This document shows positions 1-49,335 of a DNA stretch of 64,000 bases, in pieces. The stretch lies in NCBI GenBank assembly GCA_017509715.1, contig JAFWOU010000029.1, forward strand, positions 127,838-191,837. Direction: 5' to 3'. The DNA comes from Paludibacteraceae bacterium. Lineage in GTDB: Bacteria > Bacteroidota > Bacteroidia > Bacteroidales > Paludibacteraceae. The first letter of the stretch is position 1. Each line of letters opens with the position of its first letter. The notes beneath the pieces were generated by a model. That model saw only the letters and a list, made by a program, of their open reading frames with translations. It did not search any database and had not been told where the DNA came from. A program made the position numbers and the translations under genes.

Positions 1-764
1 ATCGCGATTTCTATCCGTTGATGTTTGCCGATGATGTGCGAATATACATAGCCGGATATGTGAGTAACGAGGAAGAACCGGATAATGTTCATGGTGGCGT
101 GAAGGCAGTACGCGAAGTGGTGACAAAGATCCTTAATGATGGTTATACAACTAACATCATTGGTATCATTGACCGAGATTACTATGAGTATCGAGCCGAA
201 GGAGATGAGACGGGAGCGGATCATACAGGGCATATATTTAAGACAGATTATCGTGATTTGGAGATGACTTTATTCACATTATCATCTGCATGGTCTGCAA
301 TCACGTCTTTACCGGAATTTACAACTACTATTTATTCCGATTGGGAACTCGTTATTCGTCATTTGGGAGCTATTCGTGTTGCTAATAGGCATTGCAGTGT
401 ATATGAGCATTTTGATATTTCGGTAGGAAACTTATTTGATTGTCACACACGTGCTTTGATTCCCGATTGGCAAGAGATAGCATGGTCGATGGCTCAAAAG
501 GAATGTAGCAAAAGTCTTGAAAAAAGTATGCTAACCATTGTGGAAAATCGTTTCCACTTATCAACGTCACATATGGCGTCATACGCTCGCGGACATGATG
601 CGTTTAAGTTATTAGCAATCATGCTGCTTAAAGATTATACAGAGAAGAAATTGGTTGAGTTGATGATTAACCATTGTAGTTTTGAAGACTGCAAATCTCT
701 ACAACTATATCGTGATATTGCGGCATGGGAAACGACGCATGTGAAGATGTTGAGGAGTGCTTGA
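1..764 (+). CDS. DUF4435/TOPRIM-like protein, AriB-like paralogue; 5' end lies outside the window
   Basis: The frame is open to the left edge with no in-frame stop from nt 3. The C-terminus aligns with the 5232..6074 protein (LYRDIAAWETTHVKML vs LYADIAGWEASHVRIL; IIDRDYYEY vs IKDADFDRA). Confidence 0.55.
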   Translation, partial: RDFYPLMFADDVRIYIAGYVSNEEEPDNVHGGVKAVREVVTKILNDGYTTNIIGIIDRDYYEYRAEGDETGADHTGHIFKTDYRDLEMTLFTLSSAWSAITSLPEFTTTIYSDWELVIRHLGAIRVANRHCSVYEHFDISVGNLFDCHTRALIPDWQEIAWSMAQKECSKSLEKSMLTIVENRFHLSTSHMASYARGHDAFKLLAIMLLKDYTEKKLVELMINHCSFEDCKSLQLYRDIAAWETTHVKMLRSA

Positions 765-832
765 TGGCGAAAAGATATATAAAAAAGTGACGCAGACAAA
801 TGTCTACGCCACTTCTTTTTTGAGCGCTACGA

Positions 833-1219
833 TTAGCTTCGCGGATGCTCTTGGTCGTAAGCCGCACCCTCTACCATCCAGTACCAAGCCTTGAGCGTCT
901 TCTTGCCTCCGGCGAGGTCCTTCTGCGCGATGAAGGCTTGCTGGTCGTTCGTGATCTTGCTCAGATCCTTACTACGATCGCTGACAGCCGCTGCAATCGA
1001 TGCAAAGCGTACGCGTGCATACAACTCACGGGTGCTCGGTGCCGTACTGCGCTCTACTTTCTTACGCATATAGATGCGGTTGCAGTTCGGATTCTCGGTT
1101 GCTGCTACGCGGTGCGTACCAAGCAGCATTTTTGCGCAGCTGTGCTGTCCGTTCTTACCGGGTTTACTCAATGCACCGGATACACTATCGATACCGGCGC
1201 TCCATTCTACTTTTGCCAT
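833..1219 (-). CDS. small conserved hypothetical protein (paralogue family A)
   Basis: 128-aa ORF. It shares a core (Y-x-R ... T/S ... R-x-R-F-A) with the 2494..2835 and 8157..8348 products. The overlapping plus-strand ORFs look like shadows. Confidence 0.5.
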   Translation of the reverse strand: MAKVEWSAGIDSVSGALSKPGKNGQHSCAKMLLGTHRVAATENPNCNRIYMRKKVERSTAPSTRELYARVRFASIAAAVSDRSKDLSKITNDQQAFIAQKDLAGGKKTLKAWYWMVEGAAYDQEHPRS

Positions 1220-1280
1220 AATTCTAAAAATTTTTGTTAAGGTTTAAATTTAATTGTTTAGTTCATTTTTTTATTTCTCT

Positions 1281-1715
1281 CTATGTAAAGGAAAACATCG
1301 CTTCGCTCTCAAGAAAACGAGGAATTGATAGTCGCTCAACAGCGCCTTCTCGGAATCGTTCCATAGTCTGCTTGTGAGCAAGCTCCCAGACAGTCTATAG
1401 ACCTATTCCGCATAGTACCGATGATATAATCGTTACTACCAATTCCTCATAAGAAAACATGCGGAAAACAACCATGCGGACAGTATGTGAATATTATCTA
1501 CAATCGTTTTCTTCCCGGTTTTCGGCTCTTCTATAGACAGCGATGAGGACATATAGCAGGTACTCTGCGAGTGGAAGTGGTTAGTAGGTCGTCTGGGAGT
1601 CTCGCTCACAAGCGAACTAATATGCAGTTACACTCAAGGGCGTGTAGCCCAGGATGTCAAATCGGTAGTTATAGAAGATGTTTTCCTAAAAGCGAAGCGC
1701 GTTTTCCTTTAAATA
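1281..1715. repeat. nested inverted-repeat element, copy 1 (candidate structured RNA or recombination substrate)
   Basis: Outer arms are aaggaaaacatcgcttcgct (1288-1307) and agcgaagcgcgttttcctt (1691-1709). Inner arms are cttgtgagcaagctcccagac (1371-1391) and gtctgggagtctcgctcacaag (1591-1612). It contains no ORF. A second copy lies at 7490-7923. Confidence 0.6.
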
Positions 1716-1719
1716 AAGA

Positions 1720-1899
1720 TCACTTTTTGACGCCCTGATACTCTTCGACTGTCTTAGTCGAGATAGTAGTCGTCACTTTGGATGAGTCACCTACTTGCGT
1801 GTAGGTAGATGTGGTACTGATGGTGCGCCATGCCTTACAGGACGTGAGGCCCATCGCCACTGCTCCGAGTAGGAGCATTACAACAATTACTTTTCTCAT
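1720..1899 (-). CDS. small lipoprotein (59 aa, below the ORF-track cutoff)
   Basis: Hand translation gives MRKVIVVMLLLGAVAMGLTSC..., a signal peptide plus lipobox LTSC. Its ATG overlaps the stop of the upstream gene (ATGA at 1896-1899). Confidence 0.4.
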   Translation of the reverse strand: MRKVIVVMLLLGAVAMGLTSCKAWRTISTTSTYTQVGDSSKVTTTISTKTVEEYQGVKK

Positions 1900-2096
1900 G
1901 ATCGTTTTTTGTTTTTGTAATTGTAGGTGTAATCGATGCCGAACAACGCACCGGAGAAGGTGGCTACTTCACCAAATCCGACGAGAAGCGATTCGTGTAT
2001 CTCTCCTTCTGGTGCGATGAACGTCCCGATGAACAGCAGCACTATGCCACCTACTGACAGCACTGCTGCGGTGATTAACTGAATATTCAATTTCAT
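1896..2096 (-). CDS. small membrane protein (holin-like size)
   Basis: The internal ATG at 2096 gives MKLNIQLITAAVLSVGGIVLLFIGTF... with two hydrophobic segments. It is translationally coupled to the lipoprotein ORF. Confidence 0.45.
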   Translation of the reverse strand: MKLNIQLITAAVLSVGGIVLLFIGTFIAPEGEIHESLLVGFGEVATFSGALFGIDYTYNYKNKKRS

Positions 2097-2230
2097 TTTC
2101 TCATGAATTTGCGCAGCATCTGACTCCCTATTTTTTGAAAGTGGAACGCAGTGAAACGTTTTTTGAGAGGAATCAACGATTCCGTTTTTTTGTAAACACA
2201 CAACACCTCTGATTATTTTTGATATTTTTG

Positions 2231-2353
2231 CATCAATAGCAGGTACATCTTCGATGTGAGGATTCGTTAGTAGCAGACTATCTGTAAGCTTGTTTACAAG
2301 TAGGCTGGTAGTAATGAATACTCATGGCGTTGCAAACGCAACTGGTATTGATG
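2231..2353 (-). ncRNA. ~120-nt conserved hairpin element, copy 1 of 5 (candidate ncRNA or leader)
   Basis: The terminal stem is catcaatagcag / ctggtattgatg and the internal hairpin is acatc-ttc-gatgt. It is homologous to 9629-9746, 10558-10679, 36067-36180 and 43596-43747. It points the same way as the flanking genes. Confidence 0.35.
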
Positions 2354-2493
2354 TATTTTCGGTATATTTTTCTTTATCTGAATAATAGCCGTTGTGTGTG
2401 CTTTTTTGGTTACTGAAAATGTTTTCGTTGTTTTCTCGCGAAGCGTGTTTTCTGTGTCGTTTTCCTTTAAATATAAGGAGTCAAGCCGCATGG

Positions 2494-2835
2494 TTAGCCT
2501 CCAATCAGATCACCGCTTGCATCGTACTGATCGTTCAGCTTGTGCATCGCATAGCCAAACAACGAACCGTACTTGGTTTGGGACTTGTACTCAGCCACCA
2601 GTTGCGTCTTCTGCTCGCTCGATCCGGCTAGGATAGCGCGGACAGCGGTGGTTACTTTGGCGAAGCGCGCCTTAGCCGCAGTCTGCGAAGCAGACGGTTC
2701 CTTGGTGGATGGGTTACACAACTTACCGGTATAGACTTTGCCGGTACGTTTGTTGGTGCGGAAGTACACATCGCTGTGCTCACACACCTTTTTCTTCATG
2801 CTCTCAATCAGAGCCATAGGTTTGATTTCAGCCAT
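2494..2835 (-). CDS. small conserved hypothetical protein (paralogue family A)
   Basis: 113-aa ORF. The segment VYFRTNKRTG...AAKARFAKVTTAV aligns with the 833..1219 and 8157..8348 products. Confidence 0.55.
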   Translation of the reverse strand: MAEIKPMALIESMKKKVCEHSDVYFRTNKRTGKVYTGKLCNPSTKEPSASQTAAKARFAKVTTAVRAILAGSSEQKTQLVAEYKSQTKYGSLFGYAMHKLNDQYDASGDLIGG

Positions 2836-2873
2836 TTGAAATAGTTAGGGTTTAAGTTTAACAATAATATTTT

Positions 2874-3245
2874 CTAAGCATCGCAAATCTCAAGCCGGAT
2901 CTCTTCGTGAGCCGATTGCTCAGCGAGCCAACGAGCCGTTAAACTCTGCTCATCGGAGCCGCTGATAAGGATACAGCCTTTACTGTGCTCAGGGCGAGTG
3001 CCTCTATGAAACCGGATGCCGCTTCTGCCGGGTACTTGCCGAACGATGGGAAGGAGCCGCTTGAACTTCGGAGATTGCGTTACACCCACTCCGTATATCA
3101 ACGCAGGTATGATATAATCCGCATTCTCCAGCGTGTCGCAGATCGGGATGAGCACTTCCTCAAATCTACTTTCCGTAGCCAGAAACAGTCTCCCTCTCAC
3201 TGCCTTTCCATTCGCCGGCATTCTAATCAATTTGTAATATGCCAT
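2874..3245 (-). CDS. small YkuD-motif (L,D-transpeptidase catalytic-like) protein
   Basis: 123-aa ORF. The segment GIRFHRGTRPEHSKGCILI matches the His ... Ser-x-Gly-Cys arrangement of L,D-transpeptidase/peptidase folds. Confidence 0.45.
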   Translation of the reverse strand: MAYYKLIRMPANGKAVRGRLFLATESRFEEVLIPICDTLENADYIIPALIYGVGVTQSPKFKRLLPIVRQVPGRSGIRFHRGTRPEHSKGCILISGSDEQSLTARWLAEQSAHEEIRLEICDA

Positions 3246-3378
3246 AATTTATGTATTTAGTTATCCTTATAATTAATCGAAACGTAAACCAATGTAATGT
3301 TTGCGGTTCGAAGAGGAGGAATTGAGACAATTTTACGAATTACGTAGTAATGATGTCATTGATCTCCAATTCCGACGA

Positions 3379-3410
3379 CAAAGATACATATAAAAAGAGC
3401 GAAATGCAAG
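3379..3410 (-). promoter_or_regulatory. Bacteroides-type promoter (minus strand): CTTG-N20-TAtcTTTG
   Basis: Plus-strand caaagata at 3379-3386 is the reverse complement of TATCTTTG. caag at 3407-3410 lies 20 nt away. It is part of a module repeated at 12034-12065. Confidence 0.5.
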
Positions 3411-3527
3411 CGTTTTAAGGTTGGAGTGTTACGTACAGTCGGATTTTGTGTTAGATAGTCCAAATTGAGCGGAAAATGAGAGAAACGACTGCAAAATTGG
3501 AGAAAATCACATTTTTTTTGTTAAAAT

Positions 3528-3559
3528 TTTGTTTATGTCCAAAAATTTTTGTATCTTTG
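3528..3559 (+). promoter_or_regulatory. Bacteroides-type promoter: TTTG-N20-TAtcTTTG
   Basis: TTTG lies at 3528-3531 and TATCTTTG at 3552-3559. The ATG of the HNH gene is 29 nt downstream. Confidence 0.65.
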
Positions 3560-3587
3560 CACGCTGAATTGTGCAAAGCGAGATACA

Positions 3588-3947
3588 ATGGATGAAGAAC
3601 TTATACAAAGGATATGGGAGAAGGGGACGATTGTACCCAATTATGACCCCAATTTGTTCCGCCAAGATGCTGCCGGAGCGTGGATAGCTCGTGCAGAGTG
3701 GGGGAATGTTCATAGTCCATTAGGATGGGAGGTTGACCATATCTATCCACAATCGAAAGGAGGAACGGATGAGTTATTTAACCTACGTCCGATGCAGTGG
3801 GAAAATAATCGCAGTAAAGGCGATGATTACCCTCGTTATGTAGCGAAAATTGTCTCGAAAGAAAATCGTAATGTAGAAGAGTATACGCCATGTATGGTGG
3901 CGCAAGCAATACAAGAACTAATAGCATCCCATTATGGAAATCATTAA
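3588..3947 (+). CDS. small HNH endonuclease
   Basis: The segment GWEVDHIYPQSKGGTDELFNLRPMQWENNRSKGD carries the H-N-N(H) motif. The start was moved to the first ATG after the promoter. The stop overlaps the next gene by 14 nt. Confidence 0.7.
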   Translation: MDEELIQRIWEKGTIVPNYDPNLFRQDAAGAWIARAEWGNVHSPLGWEVDHIYPQSKGGTDELFNLRPMQWENNRSKGDDYPRYVAKIVSKENRNVEEYTPCMVAQAIQELIASHYGNH

Positions 3948-5226
3948 ACGATTAGATGTAAAGGGTCTTTATGGCTTTTACGACTATTCAATAGATTGTG
4001 CGACCGGAGAACATGTGAAGATTTTAACCGGTCCGAATGGTTATGGTAAGACAACGCTATTGCAGATGATTCACCATTTGCTTGGCGCAGACTTTTGGTA
4101 TTTCTATACGATACCATTTTTGTCGTTTGAGTTGGAATTAGCCAATGGTCGTCGATTCATACTGAAGAAACTTAAGGAAGCGGAAGATTCGGAGGTGGCT
4201 CAAGCATCGATGTCGAATCCTTTGCAGGTGACTTATTTTGAGGGCGAAAAACAGATTGAGCAATATCAGATAGTGCATAATTATATTGATTATCTCAAGA
4301 TTAAAGTCAATTGGAATCAATTACAGAATCAATTGTTTGTAAGTGGAATGAGTTGGGAAGACTTCTTGAAGCAGTATTATCATGCCAATGAAGATCAGTA
4401 CTTACAACAGAAAGGTCCTAACACATTAATGGCTTTACAGGTTGGTCATGCATCTTTGAGTATTGCACGACTTACGCAAGGGCATGTTGATACGCTTATG
4501 CCTAATGGAATGCCATTTAAACGCTATGTGGCTTCGACAGTTGAAGTAAATAATCATCTGCGTAATGAAGATTTTCGTAAGGCGCTTGCAATGTATAATG
4601 AGGTAAGTCAACGATTGGATGCATCGTATATCAAACGTTTGACAGAGATAAAGCCAGAACGGCCTCAAGATGTTGAAATTCAGCAGAAGCGATTGAATGA
4701 GTTGCGTGTTCGTATGGAGCGGATGGCTAAATATGGTTTGACCAAGACAGAGGAGATGATAGATACGATACCGCAGCAGTATTCGGGGACGATTGAACTA
4801 TACATACAAGATACGCAGCAGAAATTAGATGTTATAGAGCCATTTTATAGAAAACTACGTAAATTTGATGACTTGATCAATAGTCGCGCTTTAGCTCATA
4901 AGAAAATGCTATTGTCTCCCAAGGGATTGGTGCTGAAGGATGAGAATAATGTAGAGGTTCCGTTGACGGGATTATCCAGCGGTGAGCAGCATTTGCTGAT
5001 ATTATTCTATCATCTTATCTTCCAGACTCAACCCAATAGTGTTATCTTCATAGATGAGCCTGAGATGTCTATGCATCCGGCATGGTTGGAGGGAATGTTG
5101 CGTGATTTCAAGGAAATCGCTCAGATGAACAAGTTCCAGATTATCTTTGCGACCCATTCTGTGGCATTCATTGATGGCCAATGGAACTTGTCCGACGATT
5201 TGTACAAGTTGCATCGTAAGGCGTAA
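3934..5226 (+). CDS. ariA: ABC-type (AAA_15/21-like) ATPase, AriA-like
   Basis: It has Walker A GPNGYGKTTLLQ, signature LSSGEQ, Walker B VIFIDEPEMSMHP and ATHS. A long helical insertion lies between the lobes. A DUF4435 gene follows immediately. Confidence 0.6.
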   Translation: MEIIKRLDVKGLYGFYDYSIDCATGEHVKILTGPNGYGKTTLLQMIHHLLGADFWYFYTIPFLSFELELANGRRFILKKLKEAEDSEVAQASMSNPLQVTYFEGEKQIEQYQIVHNYIDYLKIKVNWNQLQNQLFVSGMSWEDFLKQYYHANEDQYLQQKGPNTLMALQVGHASLSIARLTQGHVDTLMPNGMPFKRYVASTVEVNNHLRNEDFRKALAMYNEVSQRLDASYIKRLTEIKPERPQDVEIQQKRLNELRVRMERMAKYGLTKTEEMIDTIPQQYSGTIELYIQDTQQKLDVIEPFYRKLRKFDDLINSRALAHKKMLLSPKGLVLKDENNVEVPLTGLSSGEQHLLILFYHLIFQTQPNSVIFIDEPEMSMHPAWLEGMLRDFKEIAQMNKFQIIFATHSVAFIDGQWNLSDDLYKLHRKA

Positions 5227-5231
5227 GGGTT

Positions 5232-6074
5232 ATGGGTGGATTACAGGAAACAGAGGAAAGACATTCTACGTTTGTAGATAATCTGCGGCTGGAATGGCAA
5301 TCTGACCAGTATTATGGCAAGCATATAGTGCTGGTGGAAGGAGAGGATGATGTGACATTCTACAGCAAGTTGTTCCAAAACAATTGCTTAGTTAAACCTA
5401 CATTCGGTTGTGCTAAGTTGATAGAGTATCACCAAGATATGGATGCAGCATGGACAGAGTCGTGTCATATAGCTATTAAGGATGCAGATTTTGATCGCGC
5501 CAATGGAGCGTTGATTAGCATGTCTGGTTTCTTCTATACGGATAGTCATGACCATGAGATGATGGCGGCCAGTTCGAACTCCTTTATGACTGAGTTGCTT
5601 GGAACATGTGGTTGCACCAGCAGTGTTGCGGCAGTGCAGAATGCCATATTTGCGGATTTGCGTGTGCTATCCACATTCAAGTGGTATAACTACACCGAGC
5701 ACACTCATTTGAGTTGTGATAGCGGAGTAGATATTGTAGGCGCAAGGGTACAGAATATGCAGAATCCAGCATGGTTGTTGGCACAATATCAGAGTGCTAA
5801 AGACAATAGGACACCCGGAAAAGTAATTACGGCATCGGTAGCGGATTATCAGGCATTTGCTGTTTCGCATAGTACGAACGATTATGATTTGACGAATGGT
5901 CATGATTTCTTTAAACGATTATGCGGAGGAGTGAATGGGACAGTGCATAAGCAGAATTATAAAGAAATCAATAAACGTGTGCAGACTGGTTATCAAGTAC
6001 AACATTTTCGTCCGACACAGTTATATGCCGATATTGCCGGATGGGAGGCTAGTCATGTGAGAATACTGAAATAA
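5232..6074 (+). CDS. ariB: DUF4435/TOPRIM-like protein, AriB-like
   Basis: VLVEGEDDVTFY and IKDADFDR are acidic motifs typical of DUF4435. It starts 5 nt after the ATPase stop. Confidence 0.6.
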   Translation: MGGLQETEERHSTFVDNLRLEWQSDQYYGKHIVLVEGEDDVTFYSKLFQNNCLVKPTFGCAKLIEYHQDMDAAWTESCHIAIKDADFDRANGALISMSGFFYTDSHDHEMMAASSNSFMTELLGTCGCTSSVAAVQNAIFADLRVLSTFKWYNYTEHTHLSCDSGVDIVGARVQNMQNPAWLLAQYQSAKDNRTPGKVITASVADYQAFAVSHSTNDYDLTNGHDFFKRLCGGVNGTVHKQNYKEINKRVQTGYQVQHFRPTQLYADIAGWEASHVRILK

Positions 6075-6125
6075 TGTTAATCCTGCATACGATGGTATGT
6101 GGGATTTTTTGTTAATAGTATTGAT

Positions 6126-7004
6126 ATGGAAGTTACGCAAGAGAATCGGTTTGATATAGCACCAGAGACGAAGTTGTGGCGATACATGAGTTTTGCCAAG
6201 TTTGCGGCGTTGCTGCATGACAAGCAATTGGTACTATCGCCATTACATATGTTCGAAGATCCGTTTGAAGGAGCAGGAGGAAAGGCTTGTAATATGGAGA
6301 AATTAGGTGATGCTATTATTGATACCTTTCATTCTTTGGATAGTGCGAAAGATGGGATCGAAGAGTTGGAAGCGCGAAATATTGGTATTGACAAACAGAA
6401 AGAGGTAGCTAGGCTTTGGTTAAAAGTGGGAGATGATTATGGTCATGTCAATAGGATGTATACGTTTGTCAATTGTTGGCACGAGAATGAGACAGAATCG
6501 GAGGCGATGTGGAAGTTATATACCGCTCATCAACCGGAAGGAGTGGCTATACAGACTACATACGGAGCTTTGAGGAAGGCGATAAATCAGCCGGAGATTC
6601 AGATAGGTCGAATAACGTATGAGAACTTTGATGTGGCATTTATGCCAGGTGATTCATACGGATGGTATAAGCGTAAGTCGTTTGAACATGAGCGAGAGGT
6701 ACGAGTGATGATAGAACCGGATGATCCTGAACATCTAAAGCAAATTGAGGATGCCTACAAAAAGAAGCATCAAGTGCGTATTTCGTTAGATGTGGATATA
6801 AAAGCATTGGTGGAGAATGTATTTGTATCACCATATGCAAATGATTGGTTTAAAGAGCTTGTGGAGAAAGAAATGAAGGCATGTGGACTTGATAAACCGG
6901 TGGTGTATTCTAAAATGAATGAACAAGCATTATTTTTCTTCTCTCGAAGGCAGCTGCGTCAGATGTGGAAAAGTACGCTGGAAGGTAAGAATCTAAATAA
7001 ATGA
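6126..7004 (+). CDS. DUF2971-like protein
   Basis: LWRYMSFAKFAALLHDKQLVLSPLHMFEDPFEG, FVNCWHENETESEAMWKLY and FEHEREVRV resemble the DUF2971 motif set. The start was moved to the ATG at 6126. Confidence 0.5.
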   Translation: MEVTQENRFDIAPETKLWRYMSFAKFAALLHDKQLVLSPLHMFEDPFEGAGGKACNMEKLGDAIIDTFHSLDSAKDGIEELEARNIGIDKQKEVARLWLKVGDDYGHVNRMYTFVNCWHENETESEAMWKLYTAHQPEGVAIQTTYGALRKAINQPEIQIGRITYENFDVAFMPGDSYGWYKRKSFEHEREVRVMIEPDDPEHLKQIEDAYKKKHQVRISLDVDIKALVENVFVSPYANDWFKELVEKEMKACGLDKPVVYSKMNEQALFFFSRRQLRQMWKSTLEGKNLNK

Positions 7005-7011
7005 ATAAGTT

Positions 7012-7488
7012 ATGAGAATTGATGAAGTAAAAGATATGCTTCCGCAGAAGCCGGAGAGGATGGAGAGTGTAGAGGAGCCGAAGAGGAGTGAGTTGGTGAA
7101 GGCGAGCTATGATTTGATTGGTTGCTTGCATGAGGTGTATAAGGAGTTGGGGGCAGGGTTGCCGGAGTATATCTACCAAGAAGCTGTGGCGAAGGTGCTG
7201 AAGGCGAAGGGATTGGTGTTTCACAAAGAGATGAAGTTCCATCCTACATTTATGGGAGAACAGTTGGAATCATACATCAAGATGGATTTGGTGGTAGAAT
7301 CACCGGCTGGAAACACCATCGTGGAGTGCAAGGCTTTGACGCAGCTCACGGAGAAAGAGCACTATCAGACCTTTGGCTATCTGCGTGCCACCAAGTTCCC
7401 GATTGCTATTCTCGTTAACTTCGGCACGGATAGGCGAGCGCAGATAGAGCGCTTCCACTACGCTGATAACAAACTCTATGTTTTCTGA
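7012..7488 (+). CDS. GxxExxY protein (PD-(D/E)XK-like; family often encoded in 23S rRNA intervening sequences)
   Basis: It has GAGLPEYIYQEA (the GxxExxY motif) and a DLVVE...VECK nuclease-like core. Confidence 0.7.
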   Translation: MRIDEVKDMLPQKPERMESVEEPKRSELVKASYDLIGCLHEVYKELGAGLPEYIYQEAVAKVLKAKGLVFHKEMKFHPTFMGEQLESYIKMDLVVESPAGNTIVECKALTQLTEKEHYQTFGYLRATKFPIAILVNFGTDRRAQIERFHYADNKLYVF

Positions 7489-7489
7489 T

Positions 7490-7923
7490 GTTTACCGAAA
7501 ACCTCGGCAGTACGGCCCACATGGCCTGAATGTAATCACCTAACCACGTGCTCGTGAGCAAGCTCCCAGCACGTACTTATCTGCTTACCTTCCAGTCCGA
7601 TATGAATATCGTACTACTGCCTCTCTAGAAAACTAGATAAGAAAACCTTACTTTCACGCAAATATGGCAACCACCATATTTTTCATCGCGTGAAAAGACA
7701 AAATCAGATGGTTGTCTGATTTTCGAGGGAATAGGGGAGGAGAATCGTTTTCTTGGACTGAAAGTCGTTTTCTTATGAGGCATCCGGCAGAGTAGCTGCT
7801 CACACAACGAATCCCCAAACTATCTGGGAGACTTGCTCACAAGTAGAGTGGGGATTGGTTGAGGGTAAGTCACTGTTAAGTGACTGGGATGCCGTGTTTT
7901 CGGTTTAAAATGGTTTTCGGTTA
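7490..7923. repeat. nested inverted-repeat element, copy 2
   Basis: Outer arms are taccgaaaacc (7493-7503) and ggttttcggtta (7912-7923). Inner arms are ctcgtgagcaagctcccag (7551-7569) and ctgggagacttgctcacaag (7824-7843). The junction sequences and a 14-nt motif indicate inverted orientation relative to copy 1. Confidence 0.6.
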
Positions 7924-8151
7924 TCGAAGCGGATAGCCGAGCCAGGAGCTGAAGGAATCGACAACGGATTCCTCCAATGTCTTTGACTTGCAGAGTTTTT
8001 CGTCAAGGCCGAATTTCTCGCAATATGCCTTAAGCATACGGGAGAACTCCATCGGTGTCACCATCCTCGTCGGATCGTGCCAATATTCTTGCATCTGCTT
8101 CTCCAGCGTTTTGCGCAAAGCGGATTTTTTATACTTCTTAGGTTTGTTCAT
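7921..8151 (-). CDS. hypothetical protein
   Basis: 76-aa ORF that continues the minus-strand gene string. No motif was recognised. Confidence 0.4.
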   Translation of the reverse strand: MNKPKKYKKSALRKTLEKQMQEYWHDPTRMVTPMEFSRMLKAYCEKFGLDEKLCKSKTLEESVVDSFSSWLGYPLR

Positions 8152-8156
8152 AGACG

Positions 8157-8348
8157 TTAATGTTTTTTATACCGTTGTCCCCAGGTCTTCGCAAACTTCT
8201 CTCTTGCAGCCTTCCGTGCCGGAGTATCTTTCCATTTCGTCGGACACCGCTGTACAATCTGCTTGCCCTTGTACATCCGGAAGTAATAACCATCCTTCCG
8301 AAGCATCCCTTTGAGGCAATCAATAGGTAGAATAAGTTCCGCTTTCAT
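8157..8348 (-). CDS. small conserved hypothetical protein (paralogue family A)
   Basis: Start set at the ATG at 8348 (MKAELILPID...). GYYFRMYKGK...AAREKFAKTWG aligns with the other two family members. Confidence 0.45.
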   Translation of the reverse strand: MKAELILPIDCLKGMLRKDGYYFRMYKGKQIVQRCPTKWKDTPARKAAREKFAKTWGQRYKKH

Positions 8349-8527
8349 AATCTTATTTGTTTTCGTTTCTATATTTGGGGGCCCCAAACAATTTTAATTT
8401 TTGGGGAGAGCGGAGGCGCAAGTTGCCCCCACCAATTAGCGGAGTGGTTTGGTCCTTGCAATCTTGCTGCCGAACGCGATCGCATCTCGTTACCATTGCG
8501 TACGTCACAGGTACATCACGCATGCGC

Positions 8528-8920
8528 TTACGCAGACACTTCCGCGCCATACAAGAAACACTCCGGCAGCTCGTCATAACCTTCTACCTTGTCGTACTCA
8601 GCCTTCCACTCTGGTATATCCACATCATCGTGCATAATATCCGTCAGTATATCAGCGTCCTCAGCAATCATCTTGAAGCACGCTGCCATCTTCGGATTAG
8701 CCGTAACGGTGATAGCCAAGTTCTGCCCCACCATACGATGTTCGTTGCAGAACAACATGCTATTCTTCCCATCGCACAGGAACACTAACGCATGATGTCC
8801 GTCCCGCTGCGTCCACCGGTTGATTGGTGCAAACAAATCCAACATATGGTGTTCTTCATTACTCAATACTTGCTCCTTCTGAGCCTCATTCTCTTGATTA
8901 ATTTTGGTTTCCATTTTCAT
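8528..8920 (-). CDS. hypothetical protein
   Basis: 130-aa ORF. It overlaps the upstream gene by 23 nt, consistent with operon packing. Confidence 0.45.
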   Translation of the reverse strand: MKMETKINQENEAQKEQVLSNEEHHMLDLFAPINRWTQRDGHHALVFLCDGKNSMLFCNEHRMVGQNLAITVTANPKMAACFKMIAEDADILTDIMHDDVDIPEWKAEYDKVEGYDELPECFLYGAEVSA

Positions 8921-9359
8921 TTTCGTTTTGAGGTTGATATTTAAAATTCATTCCGTACTTAATGTCCATCCCATATTCTTTCGCTTCTTCGAACGTATAA
9001 ATACCTGGACGACCATTGTAGATTGCGCTGACCAACGGCACCGTCTTTATGAGCGTATCAATCCGAATGCAACCGTTGAGGTTCGTGGGCTCTTTCTTCG
9101 GCTTGGCTCGCGCCTTAGCTCGCTCTATCTCATCCTGCTGCGCAGCATCATCCAATGCAAATCGCGGATTCGGATTGACGAAGAGTCCTTTCTTCTTCCG
9201 TTCCTCGATGATGTGATAGACGCGATTTCGCTTGTCTTCATCCAGTCCGCACCAGTAGCGAAAACAAGACTCATACTTGCTTCGCGTATCGTAAGTAGGC
9301 AGCGGTTTGAGAAGCTTATGCCATACATCATCTCCGAAACTATGAAATTCCTTTTCCAT
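8898..9359 (-). CDS. hypothetical protein
   Basis: 153-aa ORF with coding-like composition. No motif was recognised. Confidence 0.45.
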   Translation of the reverse strand: MEKEFHSFGDDVWHKLLKPLPTYDTRSKYESCFRYWCGLDEDKRNRVYHIIEERKKKGLFVNPNPRFALDDAAQQDEIERAKARAKPKKEPTNLNGCIRIDTLIKTVPLVSAIYNGRPGIYTFEEAKEYGMDIKYGMNFKYQPQNENENGNQN

Positions 9360-9628
9360 AAGAAAAATTTATTTAAAGAAAAGCAGCATGCAGCCGTAAC
9401 ACCCGACTAAATTATAAACTTGAAACTTGAAATTCTAAATCGCCTATACATAGTATAAGCGCTACGGCTGCATGCTTTTTTTTCTTATTAATTTTCTTTT
9501 GCTCCTTTTCTTTTATTGGTTTCTTTTGAAAAATTGTTTTCGATTGTTTTCTTAATTGTTTTCTTGGGGACGATTGACACCTCCAGCTTTTTTGATAGTG
9601 TTATGCAATAACACGCTTTTTTGTCATT

Positions 9629-9746
9629 AGCTAGCAATGGCATCTATGATGCGAGGATTTATTGTGAAGAGACTATCTAAAAGCTTGTTTTTAAGTAGGC
9701 TGTTCAAAATATAGACTCGATGTACTGCAAGTACGATTGCTACCTA
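9629..9746 (-). ncRNA. ~120-nt conserved hairpin element, copy 2
   Basis: The internal hairpin gcatc-tat-gatgc carries compensatory changes relative to acatc/gatgt in the other copies. It shares the core gaggatttattgtgaagagactatct...aagtaggctg. Confidence 0.35.
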
Positions 9747-9817
9747 ATGTGTTTTTCTTGTTTTTTTTTGATTACTCTTATAAAACACCCGTTCAATCGT
9801 CCCGTTTTCCTTTACAA

Positions 9818-10348
9818 TCAAATAACAGCAATATAATGCTCCGTCTTCACCTCGAACTTCGGATGCTTGGCGACATAGCGTTCAGCATCGGTGTTCATGT
9901 TATTCTTGCACTTCTGCTGCTTGGCTTTGAGATCTTTAATCTCCTTCTCAAGGCGTTTGAACTCCTTGTTCTCCGCACGCCAACTAACCGCATGCTCACC
10001 GGTGTACTTGTCGGAATCGGACAGGTCAATCGCCTCCTTGTTCTCTTTGTACTGGTAGCGGCAGTTCTTGTACTCAAACTCCTTCTTACCGTCTGCAAGC
10101 ACTTCTTGTACTTCCGGCATCGTTTCTGCAAAGTCAGCAGCAGCCTTGTCAATAGTTATTCCATACTCCGGATCATCCATCTTTACGGCATTACCGGCAG
10201 CCTTCTCGAGTTCTCGATAGAAACGAAGTTTCTCAATCGGGTCGAGGTTGCAAGCCGTAGCGGCTTTGTAGATGAGGTTCGTCAACTGTTCTCTTGTTAC
10301 TTGTCCTCTTGCTATCAGCTCCGGACATAATACTAATACATTTTCCAT
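9818..10348 (-). CDS. hypothetical protein (charged, coiled-coil-like C-terminal half)
   Basis: 176-aa ORF. The plus-strand ORF 9737..10330 is its shadow. Confidence 0.5.
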   Translation of the reverse strand: MENVLVLCPELIARGQVTREQLTNLIYKAATACNLDPIEKLRFYRELEKAAGNAVKMDDPEYGITIDKAAADFAETMPEVQEVLADGKKEFEYKNCRYQYKENKEAIDLSDSDKYTGEHAVSWRAENKEFKRLEKEIKDLKAKQQKCKNNMNTDAERYVAKHPKFEVKTEHYIAVI

Positions 10349-10557
10349 AATTGTTTTGTTTATTGTCCCAAATACTATTTGGGTTTACGTTTGTTAATTG
10401 CGTCAGATTATATCTGACATTAGTTCGTTTCCTGCTCGGAGTGTCAGCTCCGAGATTTTTGATTGTTTTTTTCATCAATAGCAGTTGCAACCATTTTTGT
10501 AATTTTTTGGCATTTTTTGTAAGGCAGCAACTCCTCCAGTGTTTTTGACTGTTTTTT

Positions 10558-10679
10558 CCATAATAGCAGTTACATCCTGGATGTGAGGAATTATTGTGAA
10601 GAGGCTATCTGAGAGTTTACTATCAAGTAGGCTATTCAGAATAAAGGCTCATGGCGTGCAAGCGCTACTGCTATGATGG
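10558..10679 (-). ncRNA. ~120-nt conserved hairpin element, copy 3
   Basis: The terminal stem is ccataatagcag / ctgctatgatgg and the hairpin is acatc-ctg-gatgt. It shares the core gaggaattattgtgaagaggctatctgagag...aagtaggct. Confidence 0.35.
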
Positions 10680-10802
10680 TGTTGTTTATGTTTTTGTTTT
10701 CGATTAAATTATAAACAGCCGTTGCTGCCGATTTTTCTCTAACTTTTTTTGGTTACCTTGAAAACTATAATTATTATAATCGAGTTATAATTGCTATAAT
10801 TT

Positions 10803-11450
10803 TCAACATTCCATGTGATGCGTCATCTCCCATTCCATGATGTCTTTTGGCTCGCCCACTGTCAATGTCGCATAGATCTTCTCTAAGCGTTTAGGCTCGA
10901 TGTTACGAGGATCAAGAGAAGGGTCATGAAGTGTCTGAGCGGCATGGCGGAGGCGGCGAAGGATTTGTGCGCAACGGCGGTTCTCTTCCCGCGAGACAAT
11001 GCGCAGGTTGATGGTGCGGCAATCGTCGATATTGCCGTTGATATGGTCTATCTCCTCACCCTCTTTTCGCACACCAATCCAAGCCAGTACGACAAGCAGG
11101 TGTACATCATACTTCTTGCCGCCGAATATCACGTACGGATAACGAGGTCCGTTAGGAACACCGTTGGGCGATTTTTGGCCGTAATTCTTCTTGCGGTTGT
11201 ACTGGATGCTGATTTGTCGTAGCCCGTACTTGGTGAGCGAATAGACTCGTCCACCTTTGGACAGATAGAGGTGTACGCCGGGAATGGCTTGCTTAAGGAG
11301 CGAGCCGTTACGGAGGCGGAGGATACGTGGTTCTTCAGAGACCACAGTGAAGGGCACGGGTGGTAGCGGCCGCCGTGGTGTTTTGGGTTTTCTGCGTTGG
11401 TTGCGCAGATGACGCTCTGCGATACAGAGCGATTTGCATTTAGCTTTCAT
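10803..11450 (-). CDS. HNH endonuclease (homing-endonuclease-like HNH_3 type)
   Basis: HLLVVLAWIGVRKEGEEIDHINGNIDDCRTINLRIVSREENRRC is a typical H-N-N/H motif context. Confidence 0.65.
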   Translation of the reverse strand: MKAKCKSLCIAERHLRNQRRKPKTPRRPLPPVPFTVVSEEPRILRLRNGSLLKQAIPGVHLYLSKGGRVYSLTKYGLRQISIQYNRKKNYGQKSPNGVPNGPRYPYVIFGGKKYDVHLLVVLAWIGVRKEGEEIDHINGNIDDCRTINLRIVSREENRRCAQILRRLRHAAQTLHDPSLDPRNIEPKRLEKIYATLTVGEPKDIMEWEMTHHMEC

Positions 11451-11588
11451 TTGCGAAAGATTTGTGCGATGTCTCGTATGCGAGTGGCCACTCTATGCAC
11501 GTGCGAGTCACACTCAACTTTCGCTGTTTAACTATGATTTCAGATGCATAGCGTATCTATGCAACGCCCCTCAAATCGAAAGGCGCTG

Positions 11589-11620
11589 CAAAGATACTAC
11601 ATTTTAAATTAAATGCTCGG
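11589..11620 (-). promoter_or_regulatory. possible promoter (minus strand), -7 box TAtcTTTG only
   Basis: Plus-strand caaagata lies at 11589-11596. There is no good TTTG at the -33 position. Confidence 0.3.
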
Positions 11621-11634
11621 ACATTTTGACAAAA

Positions 11635-11880
11635 TCAATTTTTTGGTGTTTTTTTTGTGTACCGATAGACTGTTTTTCGGCCAATTCCAAAGAATTCAGC
11701 AGTCAGTTTAGTCTGTTCCGGTTGTTTGCTGAGCCGGTCATAAACGATTTTGACGAAATCATGTTTGATGTCGTCGAAAAAGAAATGATAATCCGCAATG
11801 GATTCAGGTTTGTCTCCGATGGTAGCATCCAGCATGTGCTCGAACCAAAGGAGCGCTTCTTCATGAAAATCTGGTTTCAT
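11635..11880 (-). CDS. small protein with C-terminal helix-turn-helix
   Basis: 81 aa. TAEFFGIGRKTVYRYTKK resembles an HTH recognition segment. Confidence 0.45.
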   Translation of the reverse strand: MKPDFHEEALLWFEHMLDATIGDKPESIADYHFFFDDIKHDFVKIVYDRLSKQPEQTKLTAEFFGIGRKTVYRYTKKTPKN

Positions 11881-12033
11881 AAAACTTTAAAATTAAGTTA
11901 GTAAATATTTTGGTTTTCCTCTTCCAAATAATCGGTACGTAAACCAATATCATGTTTACGGACCGAAGAGGAGAAAACGCAACCATTACATTTTTTACGA
12001 AGTAAATTAATCATGGATTGCCGTTTTCGACGA

Positions 12034-44763: not shown

Positions 44764-46113
44764 ATGAGACGGAAGATATATGAGCAGTTGGTGCAGTGGA
44801 AAGAACATGAACAAGGACATGTGGCACTGCTGATAGAAGGTGCACGACGCGTGGGGAAGAGTTATATCGTGGAAGAGTTTGCGCAGAAGGAATATAAGAG
44901 TTATATTCTCGTGGACTTTGCGCATATAACGAAACCACTGAAACGTGTGTTCGATGACTATCTGGAGGATACGGATACGTTCCTGTTATACCTGCAACAC
45001 GTCACCGGCAAGAAGCTGTATGCGCGTGAGTCGCTGATCATCTTCGATGAGATCCAGAAATATCCGAGAGCACGTCAAGCTATCAAGCATCTGGTGGCAG
45101 ACGGACGGTATGACTACATAGAGACGGGATCGTTGGTAGGAATAAACAGTCAAGCAGAGGATATACTGGAGCCATCGGAGGAACGTCCGTTGACGCTGTA
45201 TCCGATGGATTTTGAGGAGTGGTTATGGGCAATGGGTGATGAGATGACGATGCCGTTTATCCGAGATTGTTTTGCTCATCAGCGTCCGTTGGGTCCGGTG
45301 CACAGGAAGACGATGGATCTGTTTAGGCAATATTTGATAGTAGGAGGCATGCCGCAAGTGGTGCAGAAATATGTGGAGACGCGTGATTTTCGTGAGGCAG
45401 ATAGGCAAAAGCGTGATATTCTGTCGTTATATAGGCGCAGCATAGGCAAGTACGCAAAGGGATATTCGGAGAAAGTGCGGCAGATATTTGACCAGATACC
45501 GGGAGAGTTGCAGCAGCATGAGAAGCGATTCCGTTTGTCGGACTTGGAAGAAGGAGCGCGGTACAGGAGTTATGAGTCGTCGTTCCTATGGCTTCAGGAT
45601 GCGATGATGACAAACACGTGTTATGCGGTGACGGAGCCGACAGTAGGGATGAAGTTGCGGCGCGTGGATAATGTGTTCAAGAGCTATATGAATGACACGG
45701 GATTATTGTTAGCCCATGCGTTCGACGAGAAAACGATACAAGGAGAGGAACTGTATCAGAAATTGCTGCTGGACAAGCTGGAGATCAACGAAGGGATGCT
45801 GGTGGAGAACATCGTAGCGCAGATGTTTGTGGCGAGTGGGCATAAGTTGTATTTCTACAGCAGTTACGATAAGGAAGACGCATCGAATCGGATGGAGGTA
45901 GATTTTCTGATCGAGAAATCGACGCTGACGAATGCGCACAACATCCATCCGATAGAGGTAAAATCGGGGACGAACTACACGACATCGTCGCTGAATAAGT
46001 TCCTGACGAAATTCAAGGCGCAGTCGGCTCAGCCGTACGTGATTCACAGCAAGGATTGGGAGGTGAAGGACGGAGTGATTTATATGCCGTTCTATATGGT
46101 GGCGCTGTTGTGA
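44764..46113 (+). CDS. AAA ATPase with DUF4143-like C-terminal domain
   Basis: It has Walker A LLIEGARRVGKSY and Walker B-like LIIFDEIQ. The C-terminal VDFLIE...IHPIEVKSG is nuclease-fold-like, as in the AAA_14/DUF4143 family. Confidence 0.65.
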   Translation: MRRKIYEQLVQWKEHEQGHVALLIEGARRVGKSYIVEEFAQKEYKSYILVDFAHITKPLKRVFDDYLEDTDTFLLYLQHVTGKKLYARESLIIFDEIQKYPRARQAIKHLVADGRYDYIETGSLVGINSQAEDILEPSEERPLTLYPMDFEEWLWAMGDEMTMPFIRDCFAHQRPLGPVHRKTMDLFRQYLIVGGMPQVVQKYVETRDFREADRQKRDILSLYRRSIGKYAKGYSEKVRQIFDQIPGELQQHEKRFRLSDLEEGARYRSYESSFLWLQDAMMTNTCYAVTEPTVGMKLRRVDNVFKSYMNDTGLLLAHAFDEKTIQGEELYQKLLLDKLEINEGMLVENIVAQMFVASGHKLYFYSSYDKEDASNRMEVDFLIEKSTLTNAHNIHPIEVKSGTNYTTSSLNKFLTKFKAQSAQPYVIHSKDWEVKDGVIYMPFYMVALL

Positions 46114-46147
46114 TATTGATTTTTGAAATTAAGATTTTTGATATACA

Positions 46148-46313
46148 AGTTCCTTTTTTGGAGTACTTGTTCCCTTTTGGCTTGTACCCTTAAGGAATTA
46201 ATTAAAAACTTAAAAACGCTAAAAGGTACAAGCTAACATAGTCACCATTGGCTTGTTCCTTTAAGGAGCATTAAAATAATAATTAAAAGGTACATGCTGA
46301 TGGCACGGAAAAT
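46148..46313. repeat. direct repeat A' (partner of 43224-43394)
   Basis: See repeat A. Confidence 0.9.
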
Positions 46314-46328
46314 TGTAAAACAATAGAT

Positions 46329-46666
46329 ATGGAACAGAACGAGAATACAGGTGATATTCTGATCTATCAGAGTGAGAACGGTTTGACTCGCATCGATGTG
46401 CGGCTCGAACAAGAGACTGTTTGGCTGACGCAACAGCAGATGGCTGAATTATTCCAAACATCGCGTACCAACGTGGTGGAACATATTCAGCACATCTACG
46501 AGGAAAGAGAGTTGAGTCCGGAAGCAACCTGTCGGAAATTCCGACATGTTCAAAAAGAAGGCAGCAGAATGGTAGCACGTGAGATGCGAACACGTTGTCA
46601 CCGGTGGAGGAGGCGTATCTGGAGACGATAAAAGCGTTGGCTGCGGAGACGAAGGGGAAGAAGTGA
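46329..46666 (+). pseudogene. RhuM-family gene remnant (N-terminal ~75 codons joined out of frame to a short C-terminal piece)
   Basis: ILIYQSENGLTRIDVRLEQETVWLTQQQMAELFQTSRTNVVEHIQHIYEE is typical of a RhuM N-terminus. The frame then breaks. A different frame reads ...VEEAYLETIKALAAETKGKK* ending at 46666. Confidence 0.5.
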
Positions 46667-46744
46667 GAGAGAGCAAGTATGGAGCAGAGTCTTGCGACGC
46701 AGAAGGAGATATTTGGGAAGTTGGACGAGTTTATATTTGGATGA

Positions 46745-46864
46745 AAAATAAACAGCAAAAAAATCGACTATGCCAAGTTCCTGACGTACTTCATTGAGAA
46801 CTATTCGCAGCCTGCTACCCAAACTTGTAATGCTGATCAGGAGTTTTGGAAGAGGTTTAAGTAA
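46745..46864 (+). pseudogene. DUF354 3'-end remnant #4
   Basis: It translates to KINSKKIDYAKFLTYFIENYSQPATQTCNADQEFWKRFK*. Confidence 0.7.
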
Positions 46865-46894
46865 CCGAAAAAGAAAAATCCATCTATAATAAAT

Positions 46895-48403: not shown

Positions 48404-49164
48404 TGAAATATGTAGGACGAGAAGAGTTTGAGTGGGAATGCGAGTTGGCTCAGAAAGCATTGCAAAAATACTCAAGTGGGAAGAAATACAATAATGAAGT
48501 CGTACAAAATATGCTACGACAGGTTTACCATGGTTGTTGTGCATATTGCGAGGGAAGAGTAGAGCCAACGGCATATTTTGAGATAGAGCATTATTATCCG
48601 AAAAAGAACAAGAGCCATAGAGAGTATAAGCAATGGGTGACAGAATTTAAGAATCTGCATTATGCATGCCCGAGATGCAATCGATTGAAAGGAAATAAAG
48701 ATCCAAAATTTTATCATATTTTGTCACCGAATTATTACTTTGATAATGGGGGTTGGGTGACGAAACCGAATGAAATAGACAGCAGTTTATACTATGCCGG
48801 ACATAAGGTGTTTGCGAGGAAAGGTTCGCTGCAGGGGGCAGGAACAATAGCTGTGTTCAAACTGAATGAACGTCAGTCGCTGTGGATAGATAGATTGAGG
48901 AAATATGCGGAATGCTACTATTTGATGAATGTGATATATGGATTATTGGGGAAGAGTAGTAAGGAAGTGAAGGATTTGGATAGTGCACTGCAGATTTTAT
49001 TTGGGCAGTTGGTGGCTTATACTAATCCTGATGCGGCTTATTCGACTATGATTGTACAGAACTTTGGCACGGAAATTTGTAAATTGATGAAAGTATGGCA
49101 GTATAAGAGAAATGAGAAAAGTATATGTGAACAATTTCGGAAACGGATAATGGGGATAGCCTAA
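48403..49164 (+). CDS. ptuB: Septu PtuB-like HNH endonuclease (TIGR02646-like)
   Basis: It has CAYCEGRVEPTAYFEIEHYYPKK...NLHYACPRCNRLKGNK. A TAATG overlap joins it to ptuA. Confidence 0.7.
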   Translation: MKYVGREEFEWECELAQKALQKYSSGKKYNNEVVQNMLRQVYHGCCAYCEGRVEPTAYFEIEHYYPKKNKSHREYKQWVTEFKNLHYACPRCNRLKGNKDPKFYHILSPNYYFDNGGWVTKPNEIDSSLYYAGHKVFARKGSLQGAGTIAVFKLNERQSLWIDRLRKYAECYYLMNVIYGLLGKSSKEVKDLDSALQILFGQLVAYTNPDAAYSTMIVQNFGTEICKLMKVWQYKRNEKSICEQFRKRIMGIA

Positions 49165-49197
49165 TAGATGTTGGGATAATATAGAATGAAATTAAGG

Positions 49198-49290
49198 ATG
49201 AGAAAAATCGGAATTTCCGAATAATCTGTCAAGATTACCAGGCCCTCTGCTTGTAAGGCAGATTTAGAGTTCTGGAAGAAGTTTAAGTAG
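49198..49290 (+). pseudogene. direct repeat C' containing a degenerate DUF354 3'-end remnant (#5)
   Basis: It is the partner of 44412-44504 and ends ...CKADLEFWKKFK*. Confidence 0.65.
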
Positions 49291-49335
49291 ATCTATATAG
49301 ATGAACGAATCTATGTGTGATATAATACGTGAGGA

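Follow-up and report, generated by a model that had tools for sequence, protein, structure and literature searches.

A small HNH nuclease gene as a conserved member of a PARIS-like ATPase-DUF4435 operon in Bacteroidales

Introduction

Does a small HNH nuclease gene that directly precedes a PARIS-like pair of ATPase and DUF4435 genes belong to the same anti-phage system, and in what capacity? The question is raised by three tightly packed genes at positions 3528-6112 of a 64,000-nucleotide (nt) stretch of DNA from a Paludibacteraceae bacterium (assembly GCA_017509715.1, contig JAFWOU010000029.1), which is referred to here as the window and in whose coordinates all positions are given. A first-pass annotation of this stretch had likened the ATPase and DUF4435 genes to PARIS and the ATPase and HNH genes to Septu, and had suggested a hybrid or expanded defence system.

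PARIS consists of an ATP-binding cassette (ABC) ATPase, AriA, and a DUF4435/TOPRIM protein, AriB, and its 11 published clades are all two-gene or fused systems (Rousset 2022; Burman/Deep 2024, PMC11464382). Its AriA6:AriB3 complex is activated by anti-restriction proteins (Ocr), and AriB, once released, cleaves tRNA. In Septu, an ATPase oligomer holds and regulates the HNH protein PtuB, which has lately been reported to cut tRNA-Tyr; Septu and Retron-Eco7 provide precedents for an ATPase that regulates an HNH tRNase. For the locus studied here, we consider it somewhat probable that positions 3528-6112 form one transcription unit for a three-component PARIS-like anti-phage system in which the HNH protein is an integral third subunit. 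The genes for the three proteins are referred to below as the trio.

Results and Discussion

Architecture of the locus

The HNH gene (119 amino acids, ATG at 3588) occupies positions 3588-3947, the ATPase gene (430 amino acids) positions 3934-5226 and the DUF4435 gene (280 amino acids) positions 5232-6074, all on the forward strand. According to both the list of open reading frames (ORFs) and the raw sequence, the HNH and ATPase frames overlap by 14 nt while 5 nt separate the ATPase stop from the DUF4435 start, so the sizes and spacings given in the first-pass annotation all hold. An alternative TTG start for the HNH gene at 3549 was rejected as it lies inside the promoter -7 box, and the homologues also begin with MDEELIQ.

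The promoter was read from the sequence at 3528-3559 (forward strand) and consists of a -33 TTTG (3528-3531), a 20-nt spacer and a -7 TAtcTTTG (3552-3559). The consensus promoter proposed earlier for this position is thus real and can now be assigned to the Bacteroides type and not to sigma-70, a sigma-70 scan having failed to list it. The pattern TTTG-N18-22-TAnnTTTG was matched 13 times in the window, mostly 5' of genes, against 1.9 matches expected by chance, and the copy at 3528-3559 has the extended TTTGyrTATGTC...TTTTGTAnCTTTG form which is common to six other copies preceding genes. A scan for the same pattern on the forward strand between 3560 and 7004 found none. At the other end, the terminator scan located an intrinsic-terminator-like hairpin at 6079-6106 (forward strand) that begins 5 nt after the DUF4435 stop codon, with a 12-bp stem, a 4-nt loop and a U-tract running to about 6112. 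Its RNA fold has a free energy of -15.9 kcal/mol (z = -5.0), and none of 200 shuffled sequences folded equally well.

The HNH, ATPase and DUF4435 genes are therefore framed by a promoter and a terminator, and the fourth gene, a DUF2971-like gene at 6126-7004, lies outside that frame. The three framed genes share one orientation and are translationally coupled, and, as the comparisons below show, they are inherited together as a unit. No Rfam match was found in positions 1-12000 at E<=0.1, and hence no non-coding RNA (ncRNA) or retron-like element near the operon.

The ATPase and the DUF4435 protein

The ATPase matches Pfam AAA_21 (8e-23) and AAA_15 (5.5e-21, full length). Walker A (G33-T41, with K39 at 4048-4050), Q226, the LSSGEQ signature (347-352; 4972-4989), Walker B (D374-E375; 5053-5058) and H408 (5155-5157) were all found to be invariant in 14 relatives. 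The best relatives among the solved structures in the PDB are the AriA entries 8ux9, 8v45 and 8v46 (E 4.7e-15), which align from residue 4 to 416 of the query with residues 6-432 of 464. The PDB entry of PtuA, 8ee4, gives a far weaker match that is confined to residues 7-48 around Walker A (E 4.7e-6). PADLOC AriA models also match the ATPase, two of them having the lengths of Pfam models and being hence generic, and the PADLOC models of PtuA match only the C-terminal half (about 1e-20). Matches to the AbiLi, mad3 and HEC-01A models lie between 1e-14 and 1e-17, and the NCBIfam MAD3 model scores 1e-10, far below its own cut-off. By sequence, then, the ATPase is AriA-like.

The DUF4435 protein matches Pfam PF14491 (3.9e-9; 37 bits, the cut-off being 27), and AriB is the only PADLOC model that matches it (1.1e-8); the AbiLii, mad4/DUF4276 and HEC-01B models of PADLOC gave no match. 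An AlphaFold2 (AF2) model built from an alignment of database homologues reached a mean confidence (pLDDT) of 91. When this model was searched against the PDB with Foldseek, the top matches were the AriB chains 8ux9_A and 8v46_D, with a probability of 0.99 and template-modelling (TM) scores of 0.45 and 0.42 over the full length. AriB was the only significant match, the next being generic TOPRIM proteins at E >0.2. The TOPRIM acidic residues E36 (5337-5339), D84-x-D86 (5481-5489) and D104/D107/E109 (5541-5558) are invariant in 25-27 homologues, and a G223-H224-D225 motif is located at 5898-5906. On the evidence of the predicted fold the protein is AriB-like, and the earlier description of the pair as PARIS-like is borne out, with AriA as the best solved relative by sequence and AriB as the best structural match.

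The HNH protein

The HNH protein matches Pfam HNH_4 with 26.2 bits (E 7.9e-6), the cut-off being 22; of the profile searches proposed in the first pass, those for HNH_4 and DUF4435 thus gave matches above the Pfam cut-offs. None of the three proteins has a specific model in NCBIfam 2026. The catalytic residues of the HNH protein are D50-H51 (3735-3740), N65 (3780-3782) and N73-N74 (3804-3809). Across 42 homologues W10, R25, D27, H51, N65 and N73 are invariant, and each of 88 members of the family, linked to an ATPase gene or not, has the D-H, N and NN residues. The spacing of 23 from H51 to N74 equals the H840-N863 spacing of SpCas9. Judged by these alignments, all three proteins of the trio retain their catalytic residues.

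The AF2 model of the HNH protein (pLDDT 97) predicts a minimal catalytic core with extra beta-hairpin and helix elements. Foldseek aligned only the beta-beta-alpha-metal core (33-36 columns) with structures in the PDB, mainly with HNH domains of Cas9 at E >0.3; no overall fold match was found there, leaving the remainder of the fold without a solved counterpart. Similarly, PADLOC gave only weak Cas9-HNH matches. None of its PtuB models matched the protein, which is 28% identical over 92 amino acids (E 2e-4) to the HNH domain of the window's own PtuB.

Other HNH genes were observed in related settings. The same island carries an HNH_3 gene at 10803-11450 on the reverse strand (215 amino acids, E 2e-9) that is unrelated to the small HNH. 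Nine phage-like IMG/VR contigs (L182-L187, L191, L200 and L207) contain stand-alone long-form homologues with 35-45% identity and no ATPase nearby, and these could be, among other options, ordinary phage HNH genes or decoys against HNH-containing systems. Stand-alone long-form HNH genes of the sister clade adjoin defence-like modules (L036, 5382-6667; L065, 6935-7870). In Breznakibacter the adjoining genes encode a ThsB-TIR protein and a membrane protein of the SLATT_3/SLATT_1 type, and in a Marinifilaceae metagenome-assembled genome (MAG) the adjoining gene encodes a patatin.

Conservation of the three genes

Whether HNH, ATPase and DUF4435 genes co-occur in this order elsewhere had been posed as a question in the first pass, and the order was found to be conserved. 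It is fixed at 31 non-redundant loci, down to 21% ATPase identity. The HNH-ATPase junction at these loci is as tight as the ATPase-DUF4435 junction, with a median gap of 1 nt, 15 overlaps, 29 of the 31 gaps at 25 nt or less and a maximum of 44 nt. Most hosts belong to the Bacteroidales (Bacteroides, Prevotella, Alistipes, Phocaeicola, Muribaculaceae, Paludibacter and rumen or gut MAGs), the remainder being two Treponema MAGs, one Bacilli MAG and one IMG/VR viral contig (L181). The trio is present at L001, L003, L004, L005-L011 and L019-L020. ATPase homologues at 66-98% identity have a small ORF of 119-136 amino acids directly upstream and DUF4435 downstream in unrelated contexts, and the same upstream HNH homologue and downstream DUF4435 accompany the next three ATPase subfamilies (P0014, P0015 and P0016; 31-35% identity). 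The more distant ATPases P0024, P0066 and P0114 (about 28% identity) occur as the ATPase-DUF4435 pair only.

Starting from the HNH side, the HNH alignment was run against 185,579 species-representative genomes and returned 574 relatives, and neighbourhoods were taken from the best 80. Thirty-three of these 80 are long-form proteins (about 117-129 amino acids), 23 of which are directly followed by the ATPase, and DUF4435 follows the ATPase in those 23 loci wherever the contig continues. Of the remaining long forms, one has no downstream room and nine lie beside other genes. None of the 47 short-form proteins (about 100 amino acids) is linked. In the HNH tree the 32 linked proteins are contiguous, with only L032 nested among them, and the unlinked proteins, long-form and short-form, fall into sister clusters of their own.

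From the ATPase side, 80 loci were obtained in an ATPase-anchored scan of metagenomes, and DUF4435 lies downstream in all 70 that have room for it. A neighbour-joining (NJ) tree was built from 103 ATPases with a PtuA outgroup, 89 of them labelled. The 28 trio ATPases cluster in this tree, and Fitch parsimony requires 2 changes of HNH state (2-4 across 100 bootstraps). Pairwise identities among 23 trios correlate between HNH and ATPase (r=0.81), HNH and DUF4435 (r=0.77) and ATPase and DUF4435 (r=0.91), all with Mantel p<=5e-4. Taken from gene order and phylogeny, the HNH gene is not a chance neighbour; it is a conserved, co-inherited member of the operon.

The nearest genome is the rumen Bacteroidales MAG RUG14367 (L021). 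Its positions 4813-6988 are 90% identical in DNA to window positions 3400-5575, a stretch that begins 5' of the promoter and extends to roughly residue 115 of the DUF4435 protein, where the homology ends; the protein identities are 98% for HNH, 96% for the ATPase and 64% for DUF4435. As the break coincides with the end of the TOPRIM domain, it suggests a recombinational swap of the C-terminal helical domain of the effector. Some trios were observed to differ or to look decayed: the variable middle region of the ATPase is shortened by about 100 amino acids in some, the ATPase gene is split by a frameshift in L042 (Phocaeicola faecigallinarum), and the DUF4435 gene is split in L039/L146 (Paludibacter).

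Role of the HNH protein

By analogy with PARIS (PMC11464382) and by comparison with Septu and Menshen, the oligomer of the ABC ATPase would act as a scaffold that holds the TOPRIM nuclease inactive. The variable insertion and coiled-coil region of the ATPase would serve to sense a trigger encoded by the phage, and the binding or hydrolysis of ATP would then release the TOPRIM nuclease, which might cut host tRNA and so abort the infection. The HNH protein would most likely be a second nuclease effector under the same ATPase, as PtuB is under the control of PtuA, and with PtuA-PtuB as the precedent we infer this to be the most economical reading. Its addition could extend the attack to a further target, DNA or another species of tRNA, and would make escape through phage-encoded tRNAs harder. 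In its full form, this proposal is a dual-effector abortive infection in which one AriA-like scaffold holds the HNH and TOPRIM nucleases and releases or activates both on a phage trigger; we put this forward tentatively, as a possibility. The surroundings are those of a defence locus: a PDC-S31-like gene, a GxxExxY nuclease, a second DUF4435 gene and an island with Septu, AbiH and PDC-S01 occur in the window, and DarT, TIR, AbiEii and HipA genes were found beside other trios.

Several observations weigh against an integral HNH subunit in a PARIS-like system. The first group concerns the likeness to PARIS. Neither phmmer nor a 27-sequence profile searched against the PDB linked the DUF4435 protein to the sequence of E. 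coli AriB, the best match being RNase M5 (E 0.07), so the link to AriB comes from the structure search alone. The protein is very distant from E. coli AriB and its structural TM score is only 0.45. The second group concerns the HNH gene. It was found upstream in only 4 of the 64 metagenome ATPase loci with upstream room, most relatives being two-gene systems, and the two-gene loci L101 and L102 nest among the trio ATPases and truly have no HNH ORF; on these grounds the HNH protein is dispensable for the core ATPase-DUF4435 machine. Sister HNH subfamilies occur alone, phage genomes included, which indicates that the protein can function independently. The strict monophyly of the trio ATPases has a bootstrap support of only 29% in the NJ tree, and we therefore claim a clustering with few gains or losses and not a single origin. 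The Mantel correlations could partly reflect the shared ancestry of linked genes and not a physical interaction. Finally, the comparison of trio with two-gene ATPases and of linked with unlinked HNH proteins revealed no residue or indel specific to the trio ATPases or the trio HNH proteins that would mark a docking surface, only Y14 for F. The first-pass annotation had named a variably present or unlinked HNH gene as the sign of a chance neighbour. Variable presence was indeed observed, while the chance neighbour is contradicted by the separate clade of the linked HNH proteins, the tight junctions and the correlation with the ATPase.

A first alternative is that the HNH protein acts as a regulator, a sensor or an assembly factor, which either recognizes or nicks invading DNA and signals to the ATPase or restrains the TOPRIM toxin. 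The gene stands first in the operon and is translationally coupled to the ATPase gene, the protein is small with extra beta-hairpin and helix elements around its minimal core, and the two-gene relatives already have a complete effector, so that an added gene could alter the sensing. The invariance of the D-H, N and NN set in both linked and unlinked proteins argues instead for real nuclease chemistry, although a sensor could use it as well. An HNH protein acting as a sensor has no precedent known to us among systems of the OLD, PARIS or Septu type, which also weighs against this role, and we regard it as unlikely.

The HNH protein might instead be a functionally independent small nuclease, either a one-gene defence or a selfish gene, that has become fixed upstream and shares the promoter. 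Such a history would fit the sister subfamilies that stand alone in Flavobacterium, Cyclobacteriaceae, Breznakibacter and phage contigs, the unlinked majority among the best 80 of the 574 relatives, and the lack of trio-specific residues in either protein. It fits poorly with the linked HNH proteins forming a clade of their own with linkage in 32 of 33 cases, and with overlapping or near-abutting frames being kept at ATPase identities of 21-68% and across phyla. In addition, the divergence of the HNH protein tracks that of the ATPase almost as well as the divergence of DUF4435 does, and the trio is transferred whole from one genomic context to another, unrelated one. This explanation is in our view distinctly unlikely.

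A chimera of Septu and PARIS by descent, in which a PtuA-type ATPase kept its own PtuB HNH and acquired AriB in addition, is very improbable. The partial PtuA model matches to the C-terminal half of the ATPase and the weak similarity of the HNH protein to the PtuB HNH domain of the window are what could be said for it. The ATPase aligns with AriA over its full length and with PtuA at Walker A only, no PtuB model matches the HNH protein, the C-terminal domain of PtuB is missing (119 against 253 amino acids), and the HNH-first order is the reverse of ptuA-ptuB. The closest relatives of the ATPase are those of two-gene ATPase-DUF4435 systems, and those of the HNH protein are small stand-alone proteins; since the nearest relatives are small stand-alone HNH genes, the HNH gene appears to have been recruited independently and not inherited from Septu. 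The Septu half of the hybrid suggested in the first-pass annotation is accordingly left without support.

A four-gene system that includes the DUF2971-like gene, which is co-oriented 51 nt downstream without a consensus promoter of its own and has a counterpart in a DUF2971 protein about 590 nt downstream of the L027 trio, is hardly credible and already largely refuted by the comparative data, given that a strong terminator hairpin separates it from the trio, the downstream genes differ at every other trio locus examined, the L027 protein has no detectable similarity to that of the window, and PADLOC catalogues PDC-S31 as a single-gene candidate.

Comparison with known systems

The trio resembles PARIS in having adjacent, co-oriented genes for an AAA_15/AAA_21 ATPase and then a DUF4435 TOPRIM protein in the ariA-ariB order, in the conservation of the TOPRIM E/DxD residues and of all ATPase motifs, and in its setting in a defence island. 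It differs in the conserved, translationally coupled upstream gene for a 119-amino-acid HNH protein, whereas PARIS is two-gene or fused. Its ATPase is shorter (430 against 464 amino acids) and only about 20% identical to E. coli AriA, and its effector has no sequence match to AriB and resembles it at the TM score given above. The hosts are Bacteroidales, whereas PARIS is carried on P4 satellites of enterobacteria.

With Septu the trio shares an ABC ATPase encoded beside an HNH nuclease. However, the HNH protein is half the size of PtuB (PtuB-type proteins have about 210-330 amino acids), is missed by the PtuB models and precedes the ATPase, which is closer to AriA than to PtuA, and the window has a true Septu pair at another place. 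Retron-Eco7/Ec78, which combines a reverse transcriptase (RT) and an ncRNA with PtuAB, demonstrates that such ATPase-nuclease modules accept a third component; the trio differs from it in having neither an RT nor an ncRNA. The systems AbiL (AbiLi/AbiLii), MADS MAD3-MAD4 and HEC-01 follow the same logic of a sensor ATPase and a TOPRIM effector, but they have no HNH component and the models of their TOPRIM partners miss the DUF4435 protein of the trio. Finally, small stand-alone HNH proteins of about 100-130 amino acids (annotated as 'HNH endonuclease', for example in Breznakibacter xylanolyticus; compare the Gme HNH 4H9D) belong to the same family and have the same catalytic core, and the long forms among them share the C-terminal beta-hairpin and helix. 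They differ in being unlinked to any ATPase and in belonging to sister clades.

The three-gene layout was not found in PADLOC v2.0.0, NCBIfam 2026 or the searched literature, in agreement with the first-pass impression that it had not been described; the literature on Menshen, HEC-01 and class-4 OLD has no matching three-gene layout, and the ABC ATPase classification of Krishnan et al. 2020 could still mention the neighbourhood. The trio thus appears to be a three-gene version of a PARIS-like system that has not been described before, with the HNH protein as a probable integral subunit.

Neighbouring genes and genomic context

The gene at 6126-7004 (forward strand) starts 51 nt after the DUF4435 stop, at the ATG that had been noted earlier. 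Its product matches PADLOC PDC-S31 (PDLC04993; 3.6e-23, 80 bits, in 3 stretches) and phrog_34615 (2.3e-40); PDC-S31 is a candidate single-gene system, and the match thus carries no established function. The DUF2971 label of the first pass did not hold at the Pfam cut-off (E 0.043; 15.6 bits against 22), and a Pfam search at E 0.01 gave no match. No homologue was found downstream of the other trios (L001-L011, L019 and other loci), the sole nearby DUF2971 protein, at L027, being unrelated. The earlier suggestion that this gene belongs to the same unit was rejected, since the terminator lies between it and the trio and its presence is not conserved at the other trio loci. It is followed by a gene for a GxxExxY PD-(D/E)XK nuclease at 7012-7488, and both genes are separate cargo of the same defence island.

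A second DUF4435 gene occupies window positions 1-764 (forward strand), with about 34 N-terminal residues falling outside the window. Its product shares 57% identity with the DUF4435 protein encoded in the L086 trio, and it falls in another subclade than the product of the gene at 5232-6074. Two such systems, separated by about 2.8 kb, are therefore probably present in the genome; the ATPase gene of the first, and possibly an HNH gene, would lie before the start of the window. Among the defence genes we also observed a DUF5675 gene (2874-3245, reverse strand) and small basic ORFs without a Pfam match at 833-1219, 2494-2835 and 8157-8387, all on the reverse strand. A small basic ORF of 128 amino acids is 81% identical in DNA to L001 5110-5496, which lies directly upstream of the trio and in the opposite orientation relative to it, and this inversion suggests a rearrangement of the island. 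A 67-nt direct repeat (3266-3332 and 11921-11987, 76% identity) brackets an 8.7-kb segment with the trio and the PDC-S31-like and GxxExxY genes, and an 87-nt repeat family has three copies in this region (2237-2323, 9632-9718 and 10564-10650). These repeats could correspond to promoters or 5' regions that recur in front of paralogous small genes, or to sites of recombination at which island cargo is exchanged.

A second defence island extends over 44764-50682 on the forward strand. It consists of a PDC-S01-like gene (44764-46113, E 8e-116), a Septu pair and an AbiH-like gene (49678-50682). The pair, noted in the first pass at 46895-49164, was confirmed as PtuA (46895-48403) and PtuB (48403-49164). 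The capsular-polysaccharide-like locus of the window has defence genes on both of its flanks. Trio loci are often situated at the edge of polysaccharide or capsule clusters, as was the case in about 8 of about 20 contexts examined, one of them in Treponema. These contexts include window positions 12000-44000 and the loci L005-L009, L019, L025, L028, L033 and L095, where the neighbouring genes encode glycosyltransferases, epimerases, NTP-transferases, Acyl_transf_3, ATPgrasp_ST and UDPG_MGDP_dh proteins.

Biological significance

PARIS and Septu are the two structurally understood cases of an ABC ATPase that cages a nuclease, and the trio places an HNH and a TOPRIM nuclease under apparently one such ATPase. 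This arrangement has been kept across Bacteroidales and passed to Treponema and to a Bacilli MAG. If the HNH protein is a second effector, the trio would illustrate how the addition of an effector closes escape routes such as phage-encoded tRNAs, with the two-gene relatives as the natural comparison. If the dual-effector proposal is true, the second target would block the escape from PARIS by a replacement tRNA, and the trio would represent the first demonstration that a single sensor in an ABC-ATPase defence system can govern two distinct effector folds. The PADLOC logic of AAA_15/21 plus DUF4435 would type the pair as PARIS and drop the HNH gene, so that the variant would be mis-described in gut and rumen metagenomes. 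The recurrent placement of the trio on the margins of Bacteroidales capsule and polysaccharide loci may also matter for the dynamics between phages and their hosts in the gut.

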